IMG/VR virus record: IMGVR_UViG_3300033067_001487
Location: 1-32,101 of that record
Reading direction: 5' to 3' (one strand)
Length of the DNA stretch: 32,101 nucleotides
Origin: a virus
Lineage: Duplodnaviria; Caudoviricetes
A program made the position numbers and the translations under genes. This document shows, one piece after another, positions 4,549 through 32,101 of this stretch (its first letter is position 1; each line of letters starts with the position of its first letter). Under the pieces are notes generated by a model. That model worked only from the letters and a program-made list of their open reading frames with translations. It had not been told where the DNA came from and did no database searches.

Positions 4549-4554
4549 GTGAGT

Positions 4555-4584
4555 AACCTAGCGTCCCTATATCCAGGTTATCAA
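4555..4584 (-). promoter_or_regulatory. Late promoter P2 (TTGATA-18-TAGGTT), leaderless, with dyad
   Basis: -35 at 4579-4584, -10 at 4555-4560, ATG at 4548. Dyad aacctag-N11-ccaggtt. Confidence 0.8.
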
Positions 4585-5292: not shown

Positions 5293-5298
5293 AAAACA

Positions 5299-5328
5299 AA
5301 TCTACTGACAATCAATCTAGGTTATCAA
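5299..5328 (-). promoter_or_regulatory. Late promoter P3 (TTGATA-18-TAGATT), leaderless, with dyad
   Basis: -35 at 5323-5328 overlaps the upstream TGA stop; -10 at 5299-5304; ATG at 5292. Dyad aatctac-N11-ctaggtt. Confidence 0.75.
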
Positions 5329-6044
5329 ATGAACGGAAAGGACTGTGAGCCTGTAAATACTGGTGTAGGATCAAGACCCCACTTTTGTATATATCTCCGC
5401 TTCATTTCCATAAATTGCTCTGATAGATCCTTGGCGTGTGTAGTTTGTCCCTCTCTATGTTGGATCGAGCATCCATAGTTGACGTACAGCTTGAGACCCG
5501 CCTTCATGACTCTGGTGGAGTAGTCCCAGTCCTCCCAGTTACAGGGATAGTAAGTGTCCTGATCGTAGTAGCCAACTCGCGCAATTGTTTTTTTAGTCAA
5601 CATGACACACGCATGAGAAAACCATTTATAGTTTTCGACTATTCCCGCACCTTGCGGTAGATGTTCTACGTAGATGTTAGCGAGCCCTGCCTGGGGCATA
5701 TCCATAGCTTGCTTTAGGGCTTCTAGCCAACCTTCGTGGACTATCGTATCATCGCCAAGTATCGTGATGTAGTTTGCGCGTGCGAGTTTCATGCCTGTAT
5801 TCCAGCCATGAGATATGCCCATATTCTTATCGAGTCTTACGTACACGTCACAGTACTTGTCCCACTCAAATCGCTCTGTTGATCCATTGTCTACGATGAT
5901 CAGCTCGTAGTCTTTACTTGATCCGCGCACACTGGCCACACATTCTTTGGCCATTTCAACAAGCTCAGGGGTGCGGTGATAGATGAGCAGTACTACGCTA
6001 TATGTCGGTTTTGTTAAGTTTGGATTTACAAGTACATCTGCCAT
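5325..6044 (-). CDS. Glycosyltransferase family 2 (GT-A)
   Basis: SVVL..Y, ELIIVDNGS, N.G...GWN.G, LGDD and WEDWDY motifs. Confidence 0.9.
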   Translation of the reverse strand: MADVLVNPNLTKPTYSVVLLIYHRTPELVEMAKECVASVRGSSKDYELIIVDNGSTERFEWDKYCDVYVRLDKNMGISHGWNTGMKLARANYITILGDDTIVHEGWLEALKQAMDMPQAGLANIYVEHLPQGAGIVENYKWFSHACVMLTKKTIARVGYYDQDTYYPCNWEDWDYSTRVMKAGLKLYVNYGCSIQHREGQTTHAKDLSEQFMEMKRRYIQKWGLDPTPVFTGSQSFPFI

Positions 6045-6718
6045 AGTGATTTCCAGTCAACTGACGGAGCCATGAATCCACTAACCATATGAGTAGCAAA
6101 AGAGGGGATAGGAGTATAGAGCTGATGACCAAGCGCACGTAACTCATGCCACACGTCATTATCAAGATACCCATATCGATTAAATATGTCTCTACCAGAG
6201 GCAAATACATCTGGTCGAGTAGCAAAGGTCATGGTATTGCGCTCAGCAGTCCGAAAGTGGTGGTCTTCTACGAGCTTTAGTCCTACCGTTTCACTGTGTA
6301 TAGTGTGATCGATATAAAAGTTTAGATGATCGTAGGGCGACACCAGGCCCAAATCTTGAGTTGCACGGAGCAGTTTCTTGACTGATCCGGGTCTATACAA
6401 GTAGTCACACTCCTGAAATAGCACCACATCGCTGACATCTTGAGCAATCTCGTATGCACGCATAGCGGTTTCATTTATTCCAATTCGTGTATATTCGATG
6501 GTCATTGATTGAAGCCACGACATAGGCACAATGCCCTCGATCATTTTTGTATATGAGTCAGGACAAAAGTCACAAAGAAAGTGAACGCTTGGGAGCAAAT
6601 CACCGCATCCTATGACAAAAGATCGTAAGCAAAGCTCATTGAGCAAGTCTTTATAGTTTTGAAGCACAGGAGAGGGATTAGTAGAGGCTATCCCGCACAT
6701 GCGATAAATAACTTTCAT
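6026..6718 (-). CDS. Putative GT-A fold glycosyltransferase
   Basis: LFQECDYLY (degenerate EDD/DxD), VSPYDH and PIPSFATH; lies inside the sugar cassette. Confidence 0.6.
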   Translation of the reverse strand: MKVIYRMCGIASTNPSPVLQNYKDLLNELCLRSFVIGCGDLLPSVHFLCDFCPDSYTKMIEGIVPMSWLQSMTIEYTRIGINETAMRAYEIAQDVSDVVLFQECDYLYRPGSVKKLLRATQDLGLVSPYDHLNFYIDHTIHSETVGLKLVEDHHFRTAERNTMTFATRPDVFASGRDIFNRYGYLDNDVWHELRALGHQLYTPIPSFATHMVSGFMAPSVDWKSLWQMYL

Positions 6719-7617
6719 TTTATTTCATTTGCAAACTGTTTAATCTCAGGTAGCGATACATAGTCCCAGGTTTTCTTGAGTCCGACAAGAAGCGGTGTCT
6801 CGTTGTACGTTGTCATAAGGCTCTGCTTACGGTGTGAGGCCAGAAACAAATATATTTCTTGTGGACGAGCAGGGAGATGTTTTATCTTTGCTTTTTTGCC
6901 TGACACTGACTCAATAAGCATAAGCAAATATGCAAGGTCAATGTCAAAGCACGATCCAACATTGAGCACTTGCCCCATGTATTTAGGATTATTGATCGAA
7001 TCAATAAATACATCAACTACATCGTCTACATACGAGAATGCCCGTTTCATTTTACCTTCTCCAAAGATAGTGCACTCCTTATCCTCGATCAGATTGCGCA
7101 TAAACAGGGCTACTACATTTTTATATGGATTGCTCATGTCCTGGTGTGGACCATATATGTTGTGCGGACGGAATATGGTGTAGTTTAGTCCGTGCACTTT
7201 TGAAAGTATTTTGAGTATCTGCTCTGCTGCTAGTTTATTGACTCCATACACGTCTTTTGGTTTTGGTATGTCGTCCTCAGAGTAGGGCACTTCTGCCTCT
7301 CCGTATACCGCCACAGATGAAGTAAATATGAATTGTTTAGCCCGTATTGATGGGACAAGTACGTTTAGGAATATACCCAGGTTGTTATCTGTCATATCGA
7401 TAGGGGATACTTGACCCCGAGACTCAGCAGCATTCGCAGCAAGGTGGAATACAATTTCAGGACCAAAGCATTTTATGGTAAATGCAGTTTTTTCACGATT
7501 TAGCAAATCGTGTCCAAGTGTTTTTGACATTCTTAATACCACGTGACCTTCTTTGTACAAACGAGCCACTAGGTTTGAACCTAGCAAGCCCGTTGCACCA
7601 GTCACAAGTATTTTCAT
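6715..7617 (-). CDS. NAD-dependent nucleotide-sugar epimerase/dehydratase/reductase (extended SDR)
   Basis: TGATGLLG Rossmann motif, FHLAA, TSSVAVYG, catalytic YGVNK, RPHNIYGP. Confidence 0.92.
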   Translation of the reverse strand: MKILVTGATGLLGSNLVARLYKEGHVVLRMSKTLGHDLLNREKTAFTIKCFGPEIVFHLAANAAESRGQVSPIDMTDNNLGIFLNVLVPSIRAKQFIFTSSVAVYGEAEVPYSEDDIPKPKDVYGVNKLAAEQILKILSKVHGLNYTIFRPHNIYGPHQDMSNPYKNVVALFMRNLIEDKECTIFGEGKMKRAFSYVDDVVDVFIDSINNPKYMGQVLNVGSCFDIDLAYLLMLIESVSGKKAKIKHLPARPQEIYLFLASHRKQSLMTTYNETPLLVGLKKTWDYVSLPEIKQFANEIK

Positions 7618-8780
7618 ATCTTTTCAGCAACCGAACCAATAAAGTTGATCATTTCCTCAGTGATAGACGGATGGACTGATAAGAACATTCCATTCTTCAT
7701 CACCTCATCAGCATTGTCGAGCGTACCAGAGACAATGTACTCCACGTCCTTATATGCAGGATGCTTGGTGATATTTCCAGAAAATATTGTCCGACACTCT
7801 ATATTAGCCTTCTCGAAAGCCTCAAATACCTGCTTACGAGGTACGCTATTTATAAGTAGTGGGAATGAGAACCAGCACGTATCAGCCCCAGGTATAGTCT
7901 TTACCATTTGGAACCGAGGAAATCGAACAAACACATCTTTCATCATGGTATAGTTCATCCAGCGAGCTTCCTTGAACTCTTGCAACCTTCTGAGTTGTAC
8001 TCGTCCCATTGCACACTGTAGCTCTAGTGGTTTTACGTTGTAGCCCATCTCGGTATATACATACCGCTCACGATAATCATCTGGGAATCCCGGGTATTCA
8101 AATATCTTATCACTTCCAGACTCACGACCCCACTCACGCATCTTCATGGCCCGCGCTCCTATCTCCTCATCATTGGTCAAAATACCGCCACCTTCACCCA
8201 TCGTGATGATATGAGCTGCATGCATTGAAATGCATGACACATCCGCGTATGTTTCAATAAACTTACCATGCAGGGTCGTACCGTATCCATCACAGTTGTC
8301 TAGGATTATCTTTCGATCTCCGACTATCTCTCTGAGCGTAACTAGATCGACCGGATTTCCTGCAATATCCACAGCAATAACTGCCTTGATGTCAGGATGC
8401 TCAAATATGGCCTTTTTTACCCCATTGAGGGATAGATTGAGCGACTCGAGGTCTACATCAACTACAACTGGTATCAGCCAGTTTTGCACGATAGCATTGA
8501 AAGCTGTGGGGAAGTTTACAGCAGGCACAATTACCTTTGATCCCTTAGGTAGTTTTAGTGCAGCCATAGCGACAAGTAGTGCCGATGATCCTGAGTTAGT
8601 CAATACTGCTTTTTTGACTCCTGTTACCTCTGCCAATTCTTTCTCGAGTGCAATACTTTCTGGTCCTACGGTCCATCGCTTGCCTCCTTGAGATTCGATG
8701 ACATTCCATATTGCGTCACGCTCTGCATTGCCAATCATCGCTCCTCCGTACTCGATCCGATCCTGAACGGGTGTAAACAT
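7614..8780 (-). CDS. DegT/DnrJ-fold PLP enzyme, His-type; probable NDP-4-keto-6-deoxysugar 3-dehydratase (ColD/RfbH-like)
   Basis: NSGSSALL, DNCD and SMHAAHIITMGEGG with His at the usual Schiff-base Lys position. No Cys cluster after WGR. Confidence 0.8.
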   Translation of the reverse strand: MFTPVQDRIEYGGAMIGNAERDAIWNVIESQGGKRWTVGPESIALEKELAEVTGVKKAVLTNSGSSALLVAMAALKLPKGSKVIVPAVNFPTAFNAIVQNWLIPVVVDVDLESLNLSLNGVKKAIFEHPDIKAVIAVDIAGNPVDLVTLREIVGDRKIILDNCDGYGTTLHGKFIETYADVSCISMHAAHIITMGEGGGILTNDEEIGARAMKMREWGRESGSDKIFEYPGFPDDYRERYVYTEMGYNVKPLELQCAMGRVQLRRLQEFKEARWMNYTMMKDVFVRFPRFQMVKTIPGADTCWFSFPLLINSVPRKQVFEAFEKANIECRTIFSGNITKHPAYKDVEYIVSGTLDNADEVMKNGMFLSVHPSITEEMINFIGSVAEKI

Positions 8781-8781
8781 A

Positions 8782-10299
8782 TTATTTTTTAATTGGTAAA
8801 ATGTTTTGCCACTGAGATACTATCTCGACCGCATTGTATCTGAGCCACTTCACGACATCCTCATCTTCCACATCATCAGGGATAGAGTAGAGAAGCTCTA
8901 TCTGGTCATCGAGCTCTTGCGTACGGACAAGCGGGAGTAGTCCGGTTTCTACCATATCGTTCATCCAAATATACCGTGGATCGTTCAATTTTCGTGATCG
9001 ACCAAGACCCAGATCACTTGTGCCTTGTAGGGGAGCCCAATGATCTACACACGTAGCTATATTGAGCTCATCAAGGATGATCTTGTAGCCCAGCTCGAGC
9101 GCACGATAGGCTATATCAGTGTTGTCATATCCAAGTCCCTCATCATAGAACTCGTACCATCCGCCAAGCTCCTTAGCTACTTTTACGGGGATGGCTCCGT
9201 AGTTTTGTTCAAAGTCATAAGGATTGTCTGTATTCCTTAGTCCTTTATTCTGTATGCGTACGTTTTTTCGTATAAATGTACCAAATATGTCGTCCTCACC
9301 ATTGAACCAGTCTTCACTCTCAATGTCTGGCTTTACTTTGGCAGCGACATATATATCGGGTAGTGCGATTAGACTGTCAGGATGATCTTTGTGTAGTTTC
9401 ACAATCTGCTCGATTCCATCAAGCGGCATATACACGAAATCTTGTAGGAATACCAGTATCGATCCTTTAGCATTCTGCAGGGCAGTGTTGTTAGCATTTA
9501 CAAGCCCGTACGTTCGCTTGATTTTCCGTGGCTTACCTTTCATATACCGTATATCTATGTTCCACTCTTTAGCAGTCTTGGCAGCGATCTCTGATCGGTC
9601 ATCTTTGTAATCGTCTACGATCAGCCACTCTACGTTTTTATATGTTTGCTCACTTATGTTTTTTGCCATTGATCGCCAAAAGCCTTTTCTTATAGTAGCG
9701 GTATAAATAGTCACCTTGATGCCTTCGTCTTTTTCATTGAATACATTGATCCATTTAGCCGCAATGTCCTTCCATTGATAGTTTCTTGCAAACTCAACAC
9801 CTTTTTTCTGCTCTTGCTTCCATTTATTTTCATCGCTCATAAGGTCAAAAAGTGACTCAAGGTATTTTCTGTTTGTTTCCTCATCATATATATCACCGTC
9901 CACCTTTATGCCTGACCCAACAGTTTCTTTGAGCGCAAATACGTTGGTGACCACGGGGACGCAGCCATCAGCCTGACACTCAAGTGCGGTGATACAGTTG
10001 ATCTCATTGAACCACGTAGGATAGGACCATATTCCACACGATTGTCTTAGTTTTTTCAGCTCAGCTTTTCCTAGCCTTCCATGGTCGACTATGCCTGGGT
10101 ATTGCATCTTCTCAACGATTCCAGCTTTCCATGCTTTACGCTCCGGATTGTTTGCAAATATCATATCGAACACCTTCCATCCATAAGCGATGTGGAGCTC
10201 TGCATCAGGAAACATTGTTTTTATTTCCGGCCACATATCAAGAAGCACATCAAGTCCACGATCAGGAGAGGAAAGGTAGCAGAGTTTATGATGTCTCAT
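8782..10299 (-). CDS. Glycosyltransferase: C-terminal lobe of a GT4/GT-B domain fused to a GT2 domain
   Basis: Starts at YLSSPDRGL...YPTWFNEINCITALECQADG (GT-B C-lobe), then EWLIVDD, FLQD and GYDNTD (GT2). Confidence 0.85.
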   Translation of the reverse strand: MRHHKLCYLSSPDRGLDVLLDMWPEIKTMFPDAELHIAYGWKVFDMIFANNPERKAWKAGIVEKMQYPGIVDHGRLGKAELKKLRQSCGIWSYPTWFNEINCITALECQADGCVPVVTNVFALKETVGSGIKVDGDIYDEETNRKYLESLFDLMSDENKWKQEQKKGVEFARNYQWKDIAAKWINVFNEKDEGIKVTIYTATIRKGFWRSMAKNISEQTYKNVEWLIVDDYKDDRSEIAAKTAKEWNIDIRYMKGKPRKIKRTYGLVNANNTALQNAKGSILVFLQDFVYMPLDGIEQIVKLHKDHPDSLIALPDIYVAAKVKPDIESEDWFNGEDDIFGTFIRKNVRIQNKGLRNTDNPYDFEQNYGAIPVKVAKELGGWYEFYDEGLGYDNTDIAYRALELGYKIILDELNIATCVDHWAPLQGTSDLGLGRSRKLNDPRYIWMNDMVETGLLPLVRTQELDDQIELLYSIPDDVEDEDVVKWLRYNAVEIVSQWQNILPIKK

Positions 10300-12062
10300 A
10301 TTCCGTTTGAAATAATTGCAAACTTATGGTCTGCTATAGATGGAGCTATTGATCGATGATAGTTACTCTTGACCATTATTTTGTCGATTGCATTGAGCTG
10401 TTCAGGGTGCAGATCAACGGGAGAATAGATGTCATGCAGATCAACGAAAAACTTTCGGCACTTTACTTGACCCGCTAGTTGCCATCCCCTCCACTGCACA
10501 AATATGTTGAAGAAGTCATTTTTATTGAAGTGGAACCATGGCAGCCAGGTGACTCCATCTCGTGTCCCTTCCTTGACAGGATCACCATACACCGTTACCT
10601 TATACCCCATCTTCGCCCACTCTTGAGAAAGCCTGATGACCGATGTCTCTGATCCACCAATACCTGTTTCAAGTGCGGATTCGTCCCATTTCTCGAAAAA
10701 CTTAGCTCCAAAGTTTGCAAAATAGCAAATCTCATCCTCACCCCATTTACGGGGTGGAAGAACTTCCTTGCGTATAGATTGAGCAAATGGTTGCTGTGAT
10801 ATGGCCTGTGGAAGTGCATCGAGCGTCTTGATGACTGCTTTTGTGTCACCGATTGAATTAAGATAGATAAGTAGCTTATGCGTGTCCTTACATGCCTCGT
10901 TCAGATCATTAGCATCTGATAGGAAATCAACCATCTCTCCGTGTTGCTTGTCTGGGTGCTCGCTGTAGAGTAGTTTGGCAGCTTCCAGAGCCTTCTTTGT
11001 GTCTTTTTTGACTTCATAGTTTAGCTTGAGTAGTAGCTCTGCAAAAAGCACCTTCATTCCTTTGAAATTAGTGATGTTGGTTCCTTTATTATCCAGATCC
11101 ATGTTTGACGCTACATTGAGCCAGTACTCGCACGCACGATAGTTTTTGAGATTGTAGTAGGCATAGGCAAGGCGTATGTAGATAAGGGGCTGGTATGGCC
11201 ACTCTGCAATTGCGTTGTGCAGGCACTTTACCGCCTCTGCATCTTTACCTAGTTTGCCGTAGGCAATGGCCATGTGCTCGTTGCATGTGCCTCTTTCTTC
11301 ATCCCACCCAGACTTGGCAAGATACTCCTTACCCATTTCCACCACTTTATTTAGTATTTCTTTATCATCCAGCTCAGTGTAGATTTTCATGAGATAGAGA
11401 ATGGTGCGCGGATCTGTTTTCCCTGCTTTCTTTTCATCCTCTAGCTGCAATTCAAGTATTCGTCTATTCCGTTTAAGTTTTTCTTGTAGATCCGTATCAA
11501 GTGAGCAATGCATAACTGCTATTGGCCTTTCAGTCTCATGATAGTTATATGAAGTATATGTGTGCTTGGCTCCGTTTACTGGTACTGGTGTTTCGTGTAG
11601 TCTACCTTTCCAGGTTATCGTACCGGGCCGAATCAATCTTTCACGCATATGTTCCATGTCTACTTTAACCAGTGTAGATGGTGATGGTGGCCCACTAAAC
11701 TGACAACCATACCAGTAGGTAAAGAACACCACGTCTTTTTTGTTTTCCTTGGCAAGTTCCGCTACTTCTTTGAGTGCTGGTCCTCCCACAAAAAAGTCAT
11801 CAGAGTCGATCCACAATATGTAGTCCGTATCCTTAGCTGCTTGAGAAAAGTTAAAGTTACGCACAGCAGAGAAATCATCATTCCAAGCAAAGTGGGAGAA
11901 GTAGTATCCATTATCGATACAGTATCTGTTTATTTTGATGTCATTCTTTCCTGTTGTTGTTATGTATACACCATCAACAAACGGAGCCACAGATCCTACT
12001 GCTCTGACAAGTCCTGAGTATTCCGTGTCGTCTTTGACGATGATGCACGCTGATATTTTCAT
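10296..12062 (-). CDS. Glycosyltransferase: GT2 + TPR repeats + N-terminal lobe of a GT4/GT-B domain
   Basis: ISACIIVKD, W.DDFSA.RN, WIDSDD and GRLHE (GT2-TPR type); helical TPR-like middle; then GIGGSETS...DLHD...KSNYH...ISNGI (GT-B N-lobe). Confidence 0.85.
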   Translation of the reverse strand: MKISACIIVKDDTEYSGLVRAVGSVAPFVDGVYITTTGKNDIKINRYCIDNGYYFSHFAWNDDFSAVRNFNFSQAAKDTDYILWIDSDDFFVGGPALKEVAELAKENKKDVVFFTYWYGCQFSGPPSPSTLVKVDMEHMRERLIRPGTITWKGRLHETPVPVNGAKHTYTSYNYHETERPIAVMHCSLDTDLQEKLKRNRRILELQLEDEKKAGKTDPRTILYLMKIYTELDDKEILNKVVEMGKEYLAKSGWDEERGTCNEHMAIAYGKLGKDAEAVKCLHNAIAEWPYQPLIYIRLAYAYYNLKNYRACEYWLNVASNMDLDNKGTNITNFKGMKVLFAELLLKLNYEVKKDTKKALEAAKLLYSEHPDKQHGEMVDFLSDANDLNEACKDTHKLLIYLNSIGDTKAVIKTLDALPQAISQQPFAQSIRKEVLPPRKWGEDEICYFANFGAKFFEKWDESALETGIGGSETSVIRLSQEWAKMGYKVTVYGDPVKEGTRDGVTWLPWFHFNKNDFFNIFVQWRGWQLAGQVKCRKFFVDLHDIYSPVDLHPEQLNAIDKIMVKSNYHRSIAPSIADHKFAIISNGI

Positions 12063-14314: not shown

Positions 14315-14391
14315 AGATTCGTAAAAGGTGGATATTTTAATTGCTCTGTTATTTTTCCAGCTAGAGCATCGGCTGTACCACTTCTAGGAGA

Positions 14392-14421
14392 AACTTAGAA
14401 GCAGGGTGCGTAGGTTTGCAA
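14392..14421 (-). promoter_or_regulatory. Late promoter P5 (TTGCAA-18-TAAGTT) with dyad and about 70 nt leader
   Basis: -35 at 14416-14421, -10 at 14392-14397. Dyad aacttag-N11-gtaggtt. Serves scaffold and capsid genes. Confidence 0.75.
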
Positions 14422-14422
14422 G

Positions 14423-16905: not shown

Positions 16906-16911
16906 GTGTAT

Positions 16912-16941
16912 AAACTAGGATCAAGCGGGCTAGGTTATCAA
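16912..16941 (-). promoter_or_regulatory. Late promoter P6 (TTGATA-18-TAGTTT), leaderless, with dyad
   Basis: -35 at 16936-16941, -10 at 16912-16917, ATG at 16905. Dyad aaactag-N11-ctaggtt. Confidence 0.8.
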
Positions 16942-21911: not shown

Positions 21912-21918
21912 GAGTATT

Positions 21919-21948
21919 AACCTAGTCTCAAGATGTCTAGGTTTTCAA
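21919..21948 (-). promoter_or_regulatory. Late promoter P8 (TTGAAA-18-TAGGTT), leaderless, perfect dyad
   Basis: -35 at 21943-21948, -10 at 21919-21924, ATG at 21911. AACCTAG-N11-CTAGGTT. Confidence 0.8.
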
Positions 21949-23195: not shown

Positions 23196-23201
23196 GGAGA
23201 A

Positions 23202-23231
23202 AACCTAGAGACAGTCAATCTAGGTTTGCAA
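23202..23231 (-). promoter_or_regulatory. Late promoter P9 (TTGCAA-18-TAGGTT), leaderless, perfect dyad
   Basis: -35 at 23226-23231, -10 at 23202-23207, ATG at 23195. AAACCTAGA-N9-TCTAGGTTT. Confidence 0.8.
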
Positions 23232-23235
23232 GATC

Positions 23236-23883
23236 CTATGAGATCCCCCACTTTTTTGAGTCATACTTTTTGTATCGAGCCTCACCATATCGACTCTTTG
23301 GCGGTTCCTTCTCACTCAAAAACATTTGATAGGCGATGGCGAGTGACATGACCAGATCATCGTGACTTCCTCGTTCTGCTTGGGCTTTCCATATCGTTGA
23401 TGACTGGACCAAAACAAAAGAATACAGCTCCTGAATAGTTTGCTTGTCATATATCTTGAGTGCACGCTTATCTATGATGTCTTTGAGGTCTTGCAACATC
23501 TTTGGTCTGGTTGCTGATGAAGTATCCCATCCGTAGACAGTTGGTAATCCATTGTCTATAGCTCCATACTTCGGCATGGCAAATAGCTTGTATTTCTGGG
23601 CATAGTTTATTGCAGATAGTCGATCTATGAGAAATGATCCACCATTGCCTCGCTCAATTGCCACAACTGGTTTGACTTGCGTCATATCATATATCTTATT
23701 GAGCGTGTCAGAAAGCACTGGGATGTAGTCTGATGTTGTGGTTTTACTATGATACACAAGCGGGACATCTATTCTATTTTTGGAAATAAACTGTGCAGCA
23801 GTGTAGTCACCCATACCAGCAGCAGTATCAACGGCGCATACAATAAACTCTCCATTGTCGAGTGGTCTATATGTTCTATACAT
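23236..23883 (-). CDS. terL: Terminase large subunit, C-terminal RNase H-like nuclease domain (separate gene)
   Basis: VDTAAGMGD, AIERGN, GW.T...TRP and HDDLVMSLA. ATG at 23883 overlaps the upstream stop (ATGTATAG). Confidence 0.85.
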   Translation of the reverse strand: MYRTYRPLDNGEFIVCAVDTAAGMGDYTAAQFISKNRIDVPLVYHSKTTTSDYIPVLSDTLNKIYDMTQVKPVVAIERGNGGSFLIDRLSAINYAQKYKLFAMPKYGAIDNGLPTVYGWDTSSATRPKMLQDLKDIIDKRALKIYDKQTIQELYSFVLVQSSTIWKAQAERGSHDDLVMSLAIAYQMFLSEKEPPKSRYGEARYKKYDSKKWGIS

Positions 23884-24670
23884 AGTTTTGAATAGGATCA
23901 TTTGCATTCCCCATATACCACGCAAGTGATTCAAGATTAAAATAACTATCTCCACTCGTCAAAAATGCTTCTGCGGGTGATTCTGGGTATTCCTGTACAA
24001 ACAGTCGCCCAAGTTCTTTTTGTTTCTGCTCAAGAAATGATTTATCATAAAACTCAGTAGCTTTGAAAAAGAGGGGAGAAAAGCCCGTTGATCCTCGCTC
24101 GCTCTCATCCCAAAACTCTTTGAAATCATTAAACCCATTTGCTGTAGTTTCAATAACTACTCGTCCATCTGGTCTGACTGCCTGCAAAGCTGATGCCATC
24201 ATCTTGCGTAGATGGGGATAGAAAGCTGCCTCTGACATGTGCAGGTTCTTGATCGTTTTAGATCTACCAAACTCTGTATTTTCAGCAGTACCGATCTGAT
24301 AGCGCGTATTGATTGCCTCATTCACCAGTTCATACTTAGAGTTGTACTTGAGTGGTATTTTGATCTTCGTTTTCTCTTCGTATGACTTAAGATAGTACTT
24401 TACCTTTTCAAGAAGCCCTGTCGCGTTATCGCTATTGTCAGCCAACACAATCGATACTGAGTTTTCGTCAAGTAGAAAGTCAGCAAGAAATATTGCTCCG
24501 ACAAGTGATGAGAATCCCTGCTGTCGAGCTTTCAGGATTATGTCTTTGCCTGTTGCTCTAGTGATAAATGCTTTCTGTGGTTCATTTAACATAAAAGCCA
24601 CATCCTGTCCTGACTTGTTGATGATTGATAGACGCTCCTCAATAAAGCGCTGGTATTTTGAATAAATCAT
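23876..24670 (-). CDS. terL: Terminase large subunit, N-terminal ATPase domain (separate gene)
   Basis: LNEPQ, ILKARQQGFSS (Walker A), LHMSEAAF (Walker B), ETTANG and QEYP...EAFL.SG. Confidence 0.88.
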   Translation of the reverse strand: MIYSKYQRFIEERLSIINKSGQDVAFMLNEPQKAFITRATGKDIILKARQQGFSSLVGAIFLADFLLDENSVSIVLADNSDNATGLLEKVKYYLKSYEEKTKIKIPLKYNSKYELVNEAINTRYQIGTAENTEFGRSKTIKNLHMSEAAFYPHLRKMMASALQAVRPDGRVVIETTANGFNDFKEFWDESERGSTGFSPLFFKATEFYDKSFLEQKQKELGRLFVQEYPESPAEAFLTSGDSYFNLESLAWYMGNANDPIQNYV

Positions 24671-25580: not shown

Positions 25581-25623
25581 ATATCATGACCGCTTGTAGT
25601 GACGTGGGGGACGTCTAGTGAGT

Positions 25624-25654
25624 AGTTTATAATCGAGATACTCCTAGAATGCAA
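25624..25654 (-). promoter_or_regulatory. Probable promoter of the packaging operon
   Basis: TTGCAT at 25649-25654 followed by TCTAG (degenerate half-site); TATAAA at 17 nt or TAAACT at 19 nt spacing. Confidence 0.45.
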
Positions 25655-25657
25655 TGG

Positions 25658-26617
25658 CTATCGTTTGACAGCGAAAGATATGGTATCTCCTGTATTCTGC
25701 ACTTGTATATGAAATCCTGATAGCATCAACTCATCTTGTAGCGCTTTGATTCTCTCTCGTGCGTAGTCCATATCATGTGCGTCTGCAATCACGCTGAGTC
25801 GTCCCGCCACTGATCGTACATCATCCTCATCTGCCTGTATGTATTTAGATGTGGTATTTGCTGATTTGTGCCCTAAAAACTTCTGTATAAAGGCGAGATT
25901 TGATCCGCGTTTAGCTGCTTCTTTGGCTGCGGTATACCGTAAACAATGAGCGGATATGTCTTTATCGATCTTAGCGAGCCTGCACCGCTCTCGTATCTCC
26001 TGATTGAGCTTGTGTCCAAACATCTTGCACTCCCCATGTGAGCCAAATATATACGTTTGGCCCCTGTTTAGTGACAGTATCTTCTTTTCGAGAGTAGGGA
26101 ATAAAGGAGAAGTCTTAGCTGCACTATTTTTTGTCGTGCGGATAATAAGCGACCCATTTCGTAGATCAGACCATTTAAGACTACAAAGTTCTTCACGTCT
26201 CAGACCTGTGGCAAGCAAGGTAATAATGGCTATGGTGTATCGTTCATTTATATTATCCCTCACCTGTGAACGTAGTGGAGTGGTCGTAATTAGGAGTCTT
26301 TGCTCGTCCGGCGTGATCCATTCACGCGATACTTCTTGTTCTACAAGGTATCGTAGATCTTCAACAAAATCAAGTTTTGCACATCTACCAATATGTTTAA
26401 TAAACTTTATGTAGTTATTGATGGTGGATGGCTTGTTGCCATGCTCCCTACAGTCATCCAAAAATACATAGACACCACGCAAATCGAAGATTTTGTCCCT
26501 AAAATGCCTGAGAATCGTATTGAAGATTCTCTCGTAAACTCTTTCTCTCGCAGGTGTTCTACCTGCGCGGTAGGTTAGATAGGAGCGAAACTGGTCCCAC
26601 ACAATGGGCAGCCCCAT
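25658..26617 (-). CDS. int: Tyrosine integrase (start revised to ATG 26617)
   Basis: Complete catalytic set: TGLRREEL (R), TKN (K), HCLRY (HxxR), LGH, TSKY (Y); SAM-like N-terminus. The longer ORF start would overlap its own promoter. Confidence 0.92.
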   Translation of the reverse strand: MGLPIVWDQFRSYLTYRAGRTPARERVYERIFNTILRHFRDKIFDLRGVYVFLDDCREHGNKPSTINNYIKFIKHIGRCAKLDFVEDLRYLVEQEVSREWITPDEQRLLITTTPLRSQVRDNINERYTIAIITLLATGLRREELCSLKWSDLRNGSLIIRTTKNSAAKTSPLFPTLEKKILSLNRGQTYIFGSHGECKMFGHKLNQEIRERCRLAKIDKDISAHCLRYTAAKEAAKRGSNLAFIQKFLGHKSANTTSKYIQADEDDVRSVAGRLSVIADAHDMDYARERIKALQDELMLSGFHIQVQNTGDTISFAVKR

Positions 26618-26678
26618 AGCTATCTTTTGGATCGCTTCTACTGCGTGTTTAAGGGCACATTGAGTAATCAAAGGGTTG

Positions 26679-26707
26679 ATAGTACGGGCCAAACCCCTAC
26701 ATGTCAA
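26679..26707 (-). promoter_or_regulatory. Sigma70-type promoter for the integrase (TTGACA-17-TACTAT)
   Basis: -35 at 26702-26707, -10 at 26679-26684. Confidence 0.8.
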
Positions 26708-26725
26708 CACCTTCACAAATGCCCC

Positions 26726-26754
26726 TTGACATCACATAAAAATCAATGTACTAT
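26726..26754 (+). promoter_or_regulatory. Sigma70-type rightward promoter (TTGACA-17-TACTAT)
   Basis: -35 at 26726-26731, -10 at 26749-26754; back-to-back with the int promoter. Confidence 0.85.
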
Positions 26755-26809
26755 TCTCACAGTACCTTACAAGACCCACTCAGAAAACTGCATCTCGCAG
26801 CAAAACTCC

Positions 26810-26832
26810 GGTTCGACTCCCGTTGGGATCAC
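26810..26832 (+). mobile_element. Putative attP core: 3' end of a tRNA (likely tRNA-Glu)
   Basis: GG-TTCGACT-CCCGT-TGGGATC-A gives T-loop, 3' T-stem, 3' acceptor strand and discriminator. The 5' part of the tRNA is absent (upstream T-stem does not pair). About 190 nt from int and followed by a terminator. Confidence 0.75.
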
Positions 26833-26844
26833 AAAACCGGCTTT

Positions 26845-26869
26845 GCTCGCAGAAATGCGAGCTTTTTTT
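26845..26869 (+). terminator. Rho-independent terminator after the tRNA fragment
   Basis: GCTCGCA-GAAA-TGCGAGC-TTTTTTT. Confidence 0.9.
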
Positions 26870-26897
26870 GTGGTTCGTCTTGATAGGACGATCCAAT

Positions 26898-27137
26898 ATG
26901 GCCGATTATACCACCAGCATTGACACAAAACAACATATCGTCGCACTTGAGCGCGCAATTGGCGCAAAGCGAGGCGAAATAGTAGGGAAACTTCTTCTTG
27001 CTCTATCCAAAAAGCATCCACTCGCTAATGTCCGTGACATGGCAGAGATCTTAGGTGTCTCTTATCAGACCATCTACAACTGGATTCAAGACTACAACAA
27101 TTACCTTACCGAAGAAAAGGGGGTGTCACATAACTAA
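26898..27137 (+). CDS. Small HTH DNA-binding protein (Cro-like or excisionase-like)
   Basis: ATG at 26898 with AGGA upstream; VRDMAEILGVSYQTIYNWI HTH. Confidence 0.75.
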   Translation: MADYTTSIDTKQHIVALERAIGAKRGEIVGKLLLALSKKHPLANVRDMAEILGVSYQTIYNWIQDYNNYLTEEKGVSHN

Positions 27138-27364
27138 TGGTGACTACCGCACCCACTAACACTCTCTACAGAGAGACAACCAAGCAAAAGATTGCGCGAC
27201 TCTTTCAAAGCATTAAATGTGCATTGATCGGATCAATCGCAACCTTAGCAGCTATCGGACTAATCTGGTGTATTAAAAACACGAAAGCAATTGCAATTGT
27301 GATCGCACACCCAGACGTAGTTGCAGAATTGAAGATCGAAAGTCAGATGGAAGTTAAAAAATAA
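27137..27364 (+). CDS. Small membrane protein
   Basis: 75 aa with one TM segment; TAATG coupling. Confidence 0.65.
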   Translation: MVTTAPTNTLYRETTKQKIARLFQSIKCALIGSIATLAAIGLIWCIKNTKAIAIVIAHPDVVAELKIESQMEVKK

Positions 27365-27408
27365 CCTACGCGTCAAACGTAGGTCAGTTACAAAATTTAT
27401 CTAAAAGT

Positions 27409-27636
27409 ATGTTAGCACAACAGAACGAAGTACGCAACAGCTCAAACGATCTGTATCTCAAAAAGATAGTCATCGATGCTGAAGCACGCCAATTGAGTGA
27501 TCGACTCTTTACGTACGCATGGAGTGGGAGTGAGTGTCTGAGTGAGGAAGATCGAGTCATGTATCGAAAGATAAGCGAGCGTCTACAGATCGTCAAGCTC
27601 ATGCAGAAGCAGATTAACAGTTATCTATCAAAATGA
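27409..27636 (+). CDS. Hypothetical protein
   Basis: 75 aa, ATGA-coupled to the next gene. Confidence 0.6.
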   Translation: MLAQQNEVRNSSNDLYLKKIVIDAEARQLSDRLFTYAWSGSECLSEEDRVMYRKISERLQIVKLMQKQINSYLSK

Positions 27637-28410: not shown

Positions 28411-28586
28411 GCCTAGCTTCTGTCCCACCGCTTAGGCGGTGACGTCACGGGGACGACGAGCCTACCCTCACAAGGGGTGGGAGAGGAGCTAGGCGCTAGA
28501 TGACCAGGGTGCGGTTATTGCAGGAATTGCACACGACTCACCCTGACCATGTAGGAAATTAATAGTTTGTTGACTACCGCAACAAA
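28411..28586 (+). ncRNA. Putative structured RNA/leader upstream of the replication initiator
   Basis: GC-rich intergenic region: 11-bp closing stem 28411-28421/28484-28494 enclosing two hairpins, then hairpins 28505-28545 and 28566-28586. G-U pairs favour the + strand. Confidence 0.55.
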
Positions 28587-29329
28587 TGATCGAAAATTTC
28601 GTGGCTCCACAAATCGAGGATGGATACGTCAAGGTCGCAAATGACTTGATTGAGGCGCTCGCACGCTTTAATCTGACAGGCATTGAGTGGCGCATTATCG
28701 CAGCCATCATGCGCAAAACGTATGGATTCAACAAGCTCCAAGATTCAATCTCGTATTCGCAAATTGCCGAAATCACCAAAATTGAGAGGCGAAATGTAAT
28801 CCGAGCAATCAAAAAACTTGTTGAGAAAAAGGTCATAACTAGTGTCAAGGCTGACACTAGTTACATCAACGGTTGGAAAATCAACAAATACTACATGGAT
28901 TGGATTGATGGGATCATCTATCCTCATCGAACTAGTGTCAAGGCTGACACTACCCCCTCAACTAGTGTCAAGGCTGACACTACCCTAGTGTCAAGGCTGA
29001 CACCAGAACTAGTGTCAGCGCTGACACCCACAATAGACAAAAGACAACTTACAAAAGACACTCCCCCTGTAAGGTCCCCCCTCATGAGATTTTCAACAAT
29101 CGAAAGTATTGACGAAAATGCAATCTCTGAGATTTCTGAGAAATACCACGTTTCAACTGACTTCGTACGGGATTGCCTCGACAACCTCGTGAATTACTGC
29201 GGTGCTCATGGCAAAAAATACAAGGATTACCGACTCGCCCTGATCAACTTCGTCAAGTCAGATAGCCGCAAATCGTTATCAGTTGCCCCAAATACCTATG
29301 GCAAACTTACCATCATCTCTGCCGCCTGA
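28586..29329 (+). CDS. Phage replication initiator, lambda O-like
   Basis: EDGYVKVANDLIEAL...RKTYGFNK..D.IS.SQ N-terminal wHTH, internal iterons and a C-terminal KYKDY...L.NF domain. Confidence 0.9.
   Translation: MIENFVAPQIEDGYVKVANDLIEALARFNLTGIEWRIIAAIMRKTYGFNKLQDSISYSQIAEITKIERRNVIRAIKKLVEKKVITSVKADTSYINGWKINKYYMDWIDGIIYPHRTSVKADTTPSTSVKADTTLVSRLTPELVSALTPTIDKRQLTKDTPPVRSPLMRFSTIESIDENAISEISEKYHVSTDFVRDCLDNLVNYCGAHGKKYKDYRLALINFVKSDSRKSLSVAPNTYGKLTIISAA
28836..29070. repeat. Replication origin: five palindromic 19-bp iterons plus an A-rich tract
   Basis: CTAGTGTCAAGGCTGACAC at 28839, 28932, 28962 and 28985; variant CTAGTGTCAGCGCTGACAC at 29009; followed by AGACAAAAGACAACTTACAAAAGACA. 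Confidence 0.9.
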
Positions 29330-31934: not shown

Positions 31935-31973
31935 CTCTGCATCGGCTAGGTGCAGAGAAAGTTAGTATTTTTT
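31935..31973 (+). terminator. Stem-loop, possible weak terminator or processing site
   Basis: CTCTGCATC-GGCTA-GGTGCAGAG, with the T-run displaced about 10 nt downstream. Confidence 0.4.
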
Positions 31974-31981
31974 ATAAATGT

Positions 31982-32101
31982 ATGGCAGACGAAAAAGGTA
32001 ACTCTGGGGACCGTAACTCTGGGGACTATAACTCTGGCGACTGTAACTCTGGGAACTATAACTCTGGCGACTATAACTCTGGGTACCGTAACTCTGGGCA
32101 C
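31982..32101 (+). CDS. NSGxx pentapeptide-repeat protein, N-terminal part (runs off window)
   Basis: MADEKGNSGDRNSGDYNSGDCNSGNYNSGDYNSGYRNSGH. Confidence 0.75.
   Translation, partial: MADEKGNSGDRNSGDYNSGDCNSGNYNSGDYNSGYRNSGH
32000..32101 (+). repeat. 15-bp coding tandem repeat, at least 7 units
   Basis: AACTCTGG(G/C)NACYRT units at 32000, 32015, 32030, 32045, 32060, 32075 and 32090 (partial). Confidence 0.95.

Follow-up and report, generated by a model that had tools for sequence, protein, structure and literature searches.

A long leader, predicted to fold into a hairpin, separates the early promoter from the early operon in a temperate phage whose family has integrated copies in tiny Roizmanbacteria-like bacteria. 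The tip of this hairpin is the place of the attachment site attP, and integration is likely to be the lysis-lysogeny switch itself. We give this reading, which leans on folding predictions, a probability of about 0.6. The feature is real and conserved. Its layout is parted between the two prophage ends in two lysogens, the two arms of the leader have co-evolved their complementarity, and an antisense promoter motif within the first early gene is conserved among relatives.

Gene layout of the phage genome

The 32,101 bases of DNA analysed here (hereafter the window) make up the entire linear virus record of a temperate phage, which CheckV estimates to be 76% complete. Left of 26.6 kb it carries genes for a tyrosine integrase, a split terminase, a portal, an SU10-type capsid and sugar-modifying enzymes, and right of 26.6 kb a small helix-turn-helix (HTH) gene, a lambda-O-like initiator with iterons (five repeats at 28837-29032), an SLT-domain gene and a VRR-NUC nuclease. 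The leftward and rightward gene blocks diverge at the leader between int and the HTH gene (Table 1). PF00589 is the sole match of the integrase and no arm-binding domain family was detected at its N-terminus; the best solved relatives of the integrase family profile are XerC-like and XerA recombinases, and the C-termini vary among relatives. The HTH protein gave a structure model with pLDDT 82, zero matches at E <= 0.001 in a fold search and a weak match to the excisionase/regulator family phrog_66 (E 4e-4), and by its position and this match it is probably a Cro/Xis-like factor. The minus-strand hairpin and T-run after the second early gene recur in all five free-form lineages examined.

Table 1. 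Coordinates of the features discussed in the text (positions in the window).
Feature	Position	Strand	Remarks
AACCTAG-N8-12-CTAGGTT-type palindromes	1933-1964, 4554-4584, 5298-5328, 14391-14422, 16911-16941, 21918-21948, 23201-23231		seven sites
Tyrosine integrase (int), 319 aa	25658..26617	-	PF00589, E 1.6e-22
P_int	26679..26707	-	TTGACA-17-TACTAT by sequence match; faces integrase
P_early	26726..26754	+	TTGACA-17-TACTAT by sigma-70 sequence match; predicted start near 26761
5' arm of rod	26761..26810	+	predicted antiterminator or anti-sequestering strand; 50/50 nt identical in L001
att core, tRNA-Glu 3' end, rod apex	26810..26836	+	dyad centre between 26822 and 26823 (tRNA positions 64/65)
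Intrinsic terminator	26845..26869 (stem 26845-26862)	+	7-bp stem, T7; mutually exclusive with rod
Hairpin ending 3 nt before HTH start codon	26872..26894	+	partly disrupted by full rod
First early gene (HTH), 79 aa	26898..27137	+	long N-terminal helix, C-terminal HTH; HTH_29/23/28, E about 1e-7
P_anti, antisense promoter	26905..26933	-	TTGTTT-17-TATAAT, extended -10 TG; inside start of HTH gene
Second early gene	27137..27364	+	small protein with hydrophobic stretch; conserved beside HTH gene, matches in L032, L033, L117
Leftward intrinsic terminator	27355..27386	-	hairpin and T-run after second early gene
Lambda-O-like replication initiator	28586..29329	+	internal iterons; PF04492, E 2.6e-23; operon downstream of leader

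Relatives and integrated copies

Searches with the integrase, the terminase and the second early gene returned four distant free-form relatives, L032, L033 (equal to G117), L100 and L117, whose integrases are 28-42% identical and which have in common the order int, divergent promoters, leader, HTH gene. From the terminase scan 12 of 17 loci were dropped, there being no integrase or HTH match in the DNA examined. tRNA-Glu-like 3' pieces lie at the apex of the predicted rod-like hairpin (the rod) in L032 and L033; the apex sequences of L100 and L117 differ, so that the att position there is assigned by analogy only. Across seven lineages this layout and a rod centred on the core or presumed core are kept, despite leaders that are unalignable. 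A metagenome scan yielded 58 loci, all with distant integrases, and was set aside. Viral contigs were scanned twice for motifs, yielding 48 and 9 loci, among which the only family members were L100 and L032, both already known. Within the integrase gene of L033 an opposite-strand insert (L033 5575-6050; L035 1-480) consists of a structured stretch rich in GAAA tetraloops and a 115-aa ORF, its 3' part overlapping the integrase tail.

Integrated copies were found in the genomes G166, from the same order as the Roizmanbacteria genome G001, and G423, from the same class. The latter was taken from a class-wide integrase search with 26 places in 22 of 401 genomes, in which upstream regions were judged by eye among the matches listed; an integrase search of a phylum sample gave 0/401 at E 1e-45. 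At attR of G166 (C2:458889-458909) a host NUDIX-like gene comes after int, the promoter, the 5' arm and 23 nt of tRNA sequence. Its attL (C1:4387-4407) is placed at the start of a different contig, which leaves the prophage with a contig gap; there an intact tRNA-Arg(TCT) precedes the 3' arm, the HTH gene and genes of the replication module. The prophage of G423 is 33.9 kb long, lies on one contig and is bounded by a 15-nt repeat equal to the 5' end of tRNA-Glu(CTC), the tRNA being in opposite orientation and pointing away from the prophage. In both lysogens attR has the promoter with the 5' arm, and attL has the 3' arm with an intact HTH gene. The claim of the original prediction that integration carries the promoter and the 5' strand to the other prophage end is thus borne out in these two genomes, and the T-loop, which it had named as the site of recombination, is disfavoured (see below). 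G126 and G220 have the attR half only, and an attL partner for these attR-like ends was looked for and not found. The end in G220 (L037 2540-2600, G220:C19) abuts the 3' end of an opposite-strand host gene, named by eye as penicillin-binding-protein-like, so the phage promoter would fire antisense into it. The tRNA-Glu of G423 is flanked on its far side by a second element (L170 415-2513), which carries an HTH_3 gene and a gene judged by eye to be recombinase-like.

Attachment site and promoters

A near-consensus promoter, a core derived from a tRNA 3' end and a terminator had been proposed from the letters of the window, and all three were located. ARAGORN places a tRNA-Glu at the core match in 23 of the 25 genome loci with the 21-nt pattern, the other two being at contig edges, and the suggested comparison of the core with host tRNAs gave a longest identity of 27 nt (26810-26836) with tRNA-Glu(TTC) of Candidatus Roizmanbacteria (L027). 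The core is in the non-coding leader, and the sole nearby HTH-family ORF starts 62 nt downstream on the lytic side. With a tRNA end in attP beside an integrase gene, the window belongs with tRNA-targeting tyrosine-integrase prophages; in the contigs of 8 of the 20 listed runs, no joint or loose end of the window phage to a host tRNA was found, and the searches likewise turned up no integrated copy of this phage. Likeness to tRNA starts at position 52 in the window, 53 in G166, 56 in L032 and 57 in L033 (the last two judged without their hosts' tRNAs), and the dyad at tRNA positions 64/65 is common to all four. Since the four cores share this dyad, the crossover would lie nearer the T-arm/acceptor junction (about 26819-26826) than the centre of the T-loop. 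Islander, as described in PMC4383910, merges the T/acceptor junction subsite with the T-loop class, the two being hard to separate. Any crossover within the core gives the same split of the leader.

P_early and P_int have identical hexamers, diverge and face outward, and P_int is followed directly by int. TTGACA promoters occur at the place of P_early in L001, L032, L100 and L117 and at the attR of G166, G126 and G220, and a promoter at this place was seen by eye in L033 and G423. Sites like P_int pass a strict scan in L001, L032, L033, L117, G126 and G220, and none passes in L100, G166 or G423. After integration P_int would remain within the prophage, aimed at the integrase and then the late genes. 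A motif like TTA.ATT.CGCTTC, possibly a protein site, is shared by the leaders of L033, L100, L117 and G126; it lies at the rod base, a short way downstream of the early promoter.

P_anti, missed in the original prediction, faces P_early across att. Its TGnTATAAT is the sole such site in the 32-kb window and is exact in six of the seven lineages, though n and the encoded residue vary; G166 has TTGCAA-17-TAGAAT at this place. A scan of 223 genomes for the start motif gave, by our own count, 79 matches against 17 for the reversed control, the motif being enriched in host genomes over that control, with 0 new family members among 42 matches inspected. In attP P_anti would read through the rod toward int. 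After integration it would point outward, opposing tRNA read-through in the window and G166 and likely acting as the tRNA promoter in G423, where at attL it lies directly upstream of the tRNA.

The rod and the terminator in the window

The whole leader is predicted to form one rod, 26762-26889, with z about -4 (0/200 shuffles). It is longer than the hairpin first described, whose four named helices are exact reverse complements, and folding of the leader agrees that hairpin and terminator exclude each other. An Rfam search of 26500-27500 gave no family at gathering score; the four weak matches were hairpin or terminator-like tails of small RNAs. The relative L001 is identical to the window at 23/29 positions in the promoter region, at 2/6 in the next 6 nt and at 50/50 in the 5' arm; its AACCGG helix is altered and still pairs in a shifted register. 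Among the rows listed, changes in close relatives cluster at 26834-26843. The hairpin just before the HTH start codon has an 11-bp version in L001, and the change 26874 T>A, present in L001 and in contigs of five other runs, closes its T-T mismatch.

Folding predicts almost equal energies for rod and terminator at the decision point. The rod would be the first to form, its 5' arm capturing the 5' strand of the terminator before the 3' strand emerges. Freeing the terminator 5' strand is predicted to cost 6.8 kcal/mol in attP versus 0.5 behind host tRNA (7/150 shuffled arms cost equal), and the refolding barrier in the window is predicted at about 11.6 kcal/mol. The suggested comparison of attP with a chimeric tRNA junction came out as expected on one side: the predicted terminator probability is at least 0.996 at the modelled host tRNA junction and still 0.58-0.89 in attP (4-12/150 shuffles as low; in L001, 0.30-0.73 in attP and 8-18/150). 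As the terminator would win 58-89% at equilibrium, read-through would need kinetic trapping or be only partial, and on these predictions the window leader is a balanced attenuator, not a dominant antiterminator.

Conservation of the pairing and closure of the start region

It had been expected that the pairing would be found in related phages, and it is kept across the seven lineages with different sequences. The rod has z of -4.2 to -6.9 with 0/200 shuffles in six lineages, and -2.7 with 3/200 in G423. With cores excluded and arm boundaries set by eye from promoters and cores, the duplex of cognate arms has a mean of -24.5 kcal/mol versus -11.5 kcal/mol for 42 non-cognate pairs, and cognate arms are best in 7/7 columns and 6/7 rows; the 5' arm of the window reaches -37.2 kcal/mol with its own 3' arm versus -8 to -13 with foreign arms. 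The arms of G166 and G423 pair much worse with the flanking host DNA that adjoins them after integration. The arms are bulged, and between close relatives the register shifts with the predicted pairing kept. From its beginning near the predicted +1 the rod extends almost to the start codon.

The proposed role of the 5' arm as an antiterminator stands for the window phage, in which it is predicted to weaken the terminator. As a family-wide mechanism antitermination is rejected, because the U-tract terminator in the 3' arm is found only in the window's lineage; in the other six lineages the rod competes with a hairpin into which the 3' arm by itself is predicted to close, over or beside the start codon of the first gene. 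We calculated the energy needed to open the region from 12 nt before to 12 nt after the start, first for the 3' arm by itself and then with the 5' arm present. Presence of the 5' arm lowers it from 13.6 to 4.4 kcal/mol in L032, 11.1 to 2.5 in L033, 8.3 to 0.9 in L100, 16.5 to 4.1 in L117 and, from the real attL, 11.7 to 3.0 in G166, and this attP effect of 7-12 kcal/mol is matched by at most 2 of 60 shuffled 5' arms in these five. For the window (11.3 to 8.1; 7/60), L001 (21/60) and G423 (11.4 to 6.9; 23/100) we find a weak effect. Against shuffled 3' arms the predicted sequestration is reached by 0, 1, 6, 11, 12, 12, 14 and 49 of 200, so that sequestration by the 3' arm alone appears individually marginal in several lineages (11-14/200; L100, 49/200). 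For 33 other starts in the window the mean is 6.4 and the maximum 12.1, compared with 13.2 at the HTH start when only its 3' arm is included.

Search for a repressor

No CI-like repressor had been visible around the divergent promoters, and this observation extends to the complete prophage of G423, in whose 52 ORFs there is none; its only matches of this kind are weak winged-helix matches within the early operon and the HTH of the terminase small subunit, and beyond attL, at a distance of 2 kb, there is an HTH_3 gene. In the 76% of a genome that the window represents, neither an HTH_3 match above cut-off nor an S24 domain occurs, and the same is true of the G166 prophage, with its contig gap, and of G595 (88% complete). 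The observation does not hold throughout the family: in G596 (L117, 94% complete), a siphovirus-like relative, a LexA-like S24 gene (L165 16717-17394, plus strand) is convergent with and adjoins the integrase, so the att-hairpin cassette can coexist with a repressor. The term repressor-free thus appears to apply, as far as searched, to the complete G423 prophage, and is unproven for the 76%-complete window.

Proposed switch and alternative explanations

Two RNA states of the leader are predicted. In free phage DNA, P_early would read across attP, and the emerging 3' arm would pair with the 5' arm, which would prevent the terminator in the window's lineage, or the start-codon hairpin in the other lineages, and so allow expression of the HTH and replication genes. 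Recombination would leave the promoter and 5' arm facing out into host DNA from attR, which is the arrangement seen in G166 and G423, and at attL any read-through from the host tRNA would meet an unpaired 3' arm, resulting in termination or a buried start region, with P_anti opposing the read-through. Silence of the putative Cro/Xis-like HTH protein would keep the prophage in place, and excision would restore the joint and commit the phage to lysis. Lysogeny would thus be held by the RNA states together with removal of the promoter. RNase III is present in all five host genomes examined and a Rho_N match in none of the five, which we count in favour of this model. The fullest form of this model is a repressor-free switch of nucleic acid only in phages of Patescibacteria, in which convergent promoters read across attP, a co-evolving two-state hairpin is cut at its tip by the integrase, and lysogeny is held in cis, without immunity, by recombination-gated folding; we regard this form as tentative, just short of an even bet.

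The main rival, which we consider unlikely, is a role of the inverted repeat at the DNA level: symmetric binding sites, or a hairpin or cruciform, would mark attP for an armless integrase and set directionality, silencing would come from promoter loss only, and the RNA folds would be by-products. A strand-asymmetry test showed that both strands fold about equally, with G-U pairs free of strand bias, so an RNA role is not singled out and a DNA role is possible; two convergent promoters, however, could account for the folding of both strands. Wherever the core is known or tRNA-like it coincides with the apex, and the Xer-like integrase has no arm-binding domain match, both as this rival would have it, but the bulged arms and the register shifts that keep the predicted pairing between close relatives speak against it. 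So does the span of the rod, from near the predicted +1 to shortly before the start codon. The tRNA of G423 points away from its prophage and therefore sends no read-through that would have to be blocked, which suits silencing by promoter loss; in most lineages, on the other side, the freed 3' arm closes the start region beyond what shuffles do.

It is quite improbable that the rod is instead an RNase III signal for processing or stability in the early and antisense leaders, with cleavage in attP freeing the start and tuning HTH and integrase, integration removing the site, and no co-transcriptional switch. Leaders of lambda N and of T7 are processed by RNase III. The stems of 30-45 imperfect pairs would suit the enzyme, which is encoded in 5/5 host genomes, but the overlap with the terminator in the window's lineage would be unexplained and the decision there precedes the outer stem; the on/off logic would be the same as in the recombination-gated switch. 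The chance is equally slim that this is ordinary attP anatomy, with a terminator capping the restored tRNA gene, outward promoters repairing host transcription (at the attR of G166 the promoter faces the host NUDIX-like gene directly after the tRNA, and at the attL of G423 the antisense promoter is directly upstream of the tRNA) and lysogeny under a conventional repressor from the missing genome part or host LexA (S24 proteins are present in host chromosomes, beside the LexA-like gene of G596), for it leaves the co-evolved pairing in seven lineages and the 50/50 conserved 5' arm unexplained, the complete G423 prophage has no repressor among its 52 ORFs, and a promoter gone from the operon needs no repressor.

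Comparison with known systems

None of the closest known systems matches the switch of the window family. The conjugative element Tn916 relies for its induction on upstream promoters and its own xis/int pair, whereas the window encodes terminase, portal and SU10-type capsid genes. The likeness is that promoters on one side of att drive genes across it only in the circle (PMC9632896, citing Celli and Trieu-Cuot, 1998), and in the attL/attR pairs of G166 and G423 promoter and operon are on opposite sides of att. The available text of PMC9632896 describes no att-spanning structure in Tn916; in the window, by contrast, a short leader, a co-evolving att-centred hairpin and a convergent antisense promoter would gate a phage replication operon.

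Integration-dependent immunity (BPs, Brujita and Charlie; corynephage CyranoPS) resembles the window family in that recombination itself sets two regulatory states, and in the compact arrangement of int, divergent promoters and a small cro-like gene, with an armless tyrosine integrase and a tRNA target (PMC3694055; 10.64898/2026.10.29.762952). In those phages, as described there, the repressor gene itself contains attP, and a degradation tag is lost on integration. In the window the lytic operon has attP in its untranslated leader, where the cut parts promoter and RNA strand; as attP lies outside any repressor gene, the window falls outside the definition of that immunity. No repressor gene lies between its promoters and int, unlike the rep of BPs and Brujita, which is described as co-transcribed leftward with int. 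Broussard and Hatfull suggest stochastic integrase accumulation for BPs-type phages (PMC3694055), which by analogy would fit the window family. P4 immunity by CI RNA is similar in achieving lysogeny without a protein repressor, through premature termination upstream of replication genes (PMC4825925), but there the agent is described as a processed, diffusible antisense RNA, and in the window family it is integration that takes away the competing strand, which would act in cis; the leader matches no CI/c4-like Rfam family and has a conserved putative antisense promoter. KplE1-type prophages also target a tRNA and have the integrase promoter beside the att region, under protein autorepression by IntS with TorI (PMC2951348); the words hairpin, stem and RNase III are absent from the main text of that paper. 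Temperate phages of Roizmanbacteria are known, and the word repressor is absent from the main text of the report on them (PMC6509639). Among full-text search matches, which covered few subscription papers, no att-centred hairpin switch appeared in titles or abstract openings.

Recombination was proposed by Broussard and Hatfull as a simple ancestral lysogeny switch (PMC3694055), and the examples considered here still need a repressor protein; the window family is a candidate with fewer parts, in the setting of poorly studied phages of Patescibacteria. The model predicts little or no superinfection immunity, induction limited by leakage of integrase or HTH protein, and a leader of about 140 nt with an on/off state. 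Should it hold, synthetic circuits would gain a compact RNA switch gated by a recombinase, and att sites in these phages could be found by the signature of rod and antisense promoter.

Other features of the genome

The record stops within an ORF of 5-residue repeats (31950-32101), a 15-nt repeat in the DNA that is the likely cause of an assembly break. The terminase large subunit is in two ORFs (23236-24670), as it is in L032, L033, L100 and G220, and in L032 and L100 small genes lie between the halves. After the integrase stop, a promoter-like site read by eye (25590-25655, minus strand; TTGCAT-17-TATAAA) is overlapped by an imperfect inverted repeat with CTAG and is a candidate late promoter. 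Glycosyltransferases, a DegT aminotransferase and an NAD-dependent epimerase lie amid virion genes at 5325-12062, mostly in common with G595, and may glycosylate the virion or the host surface. The seven palindromic sites of Table 1 stand directly 5' of several minus-strand late genes, where the motif may be a late-gene operator or an RNA hairpin.
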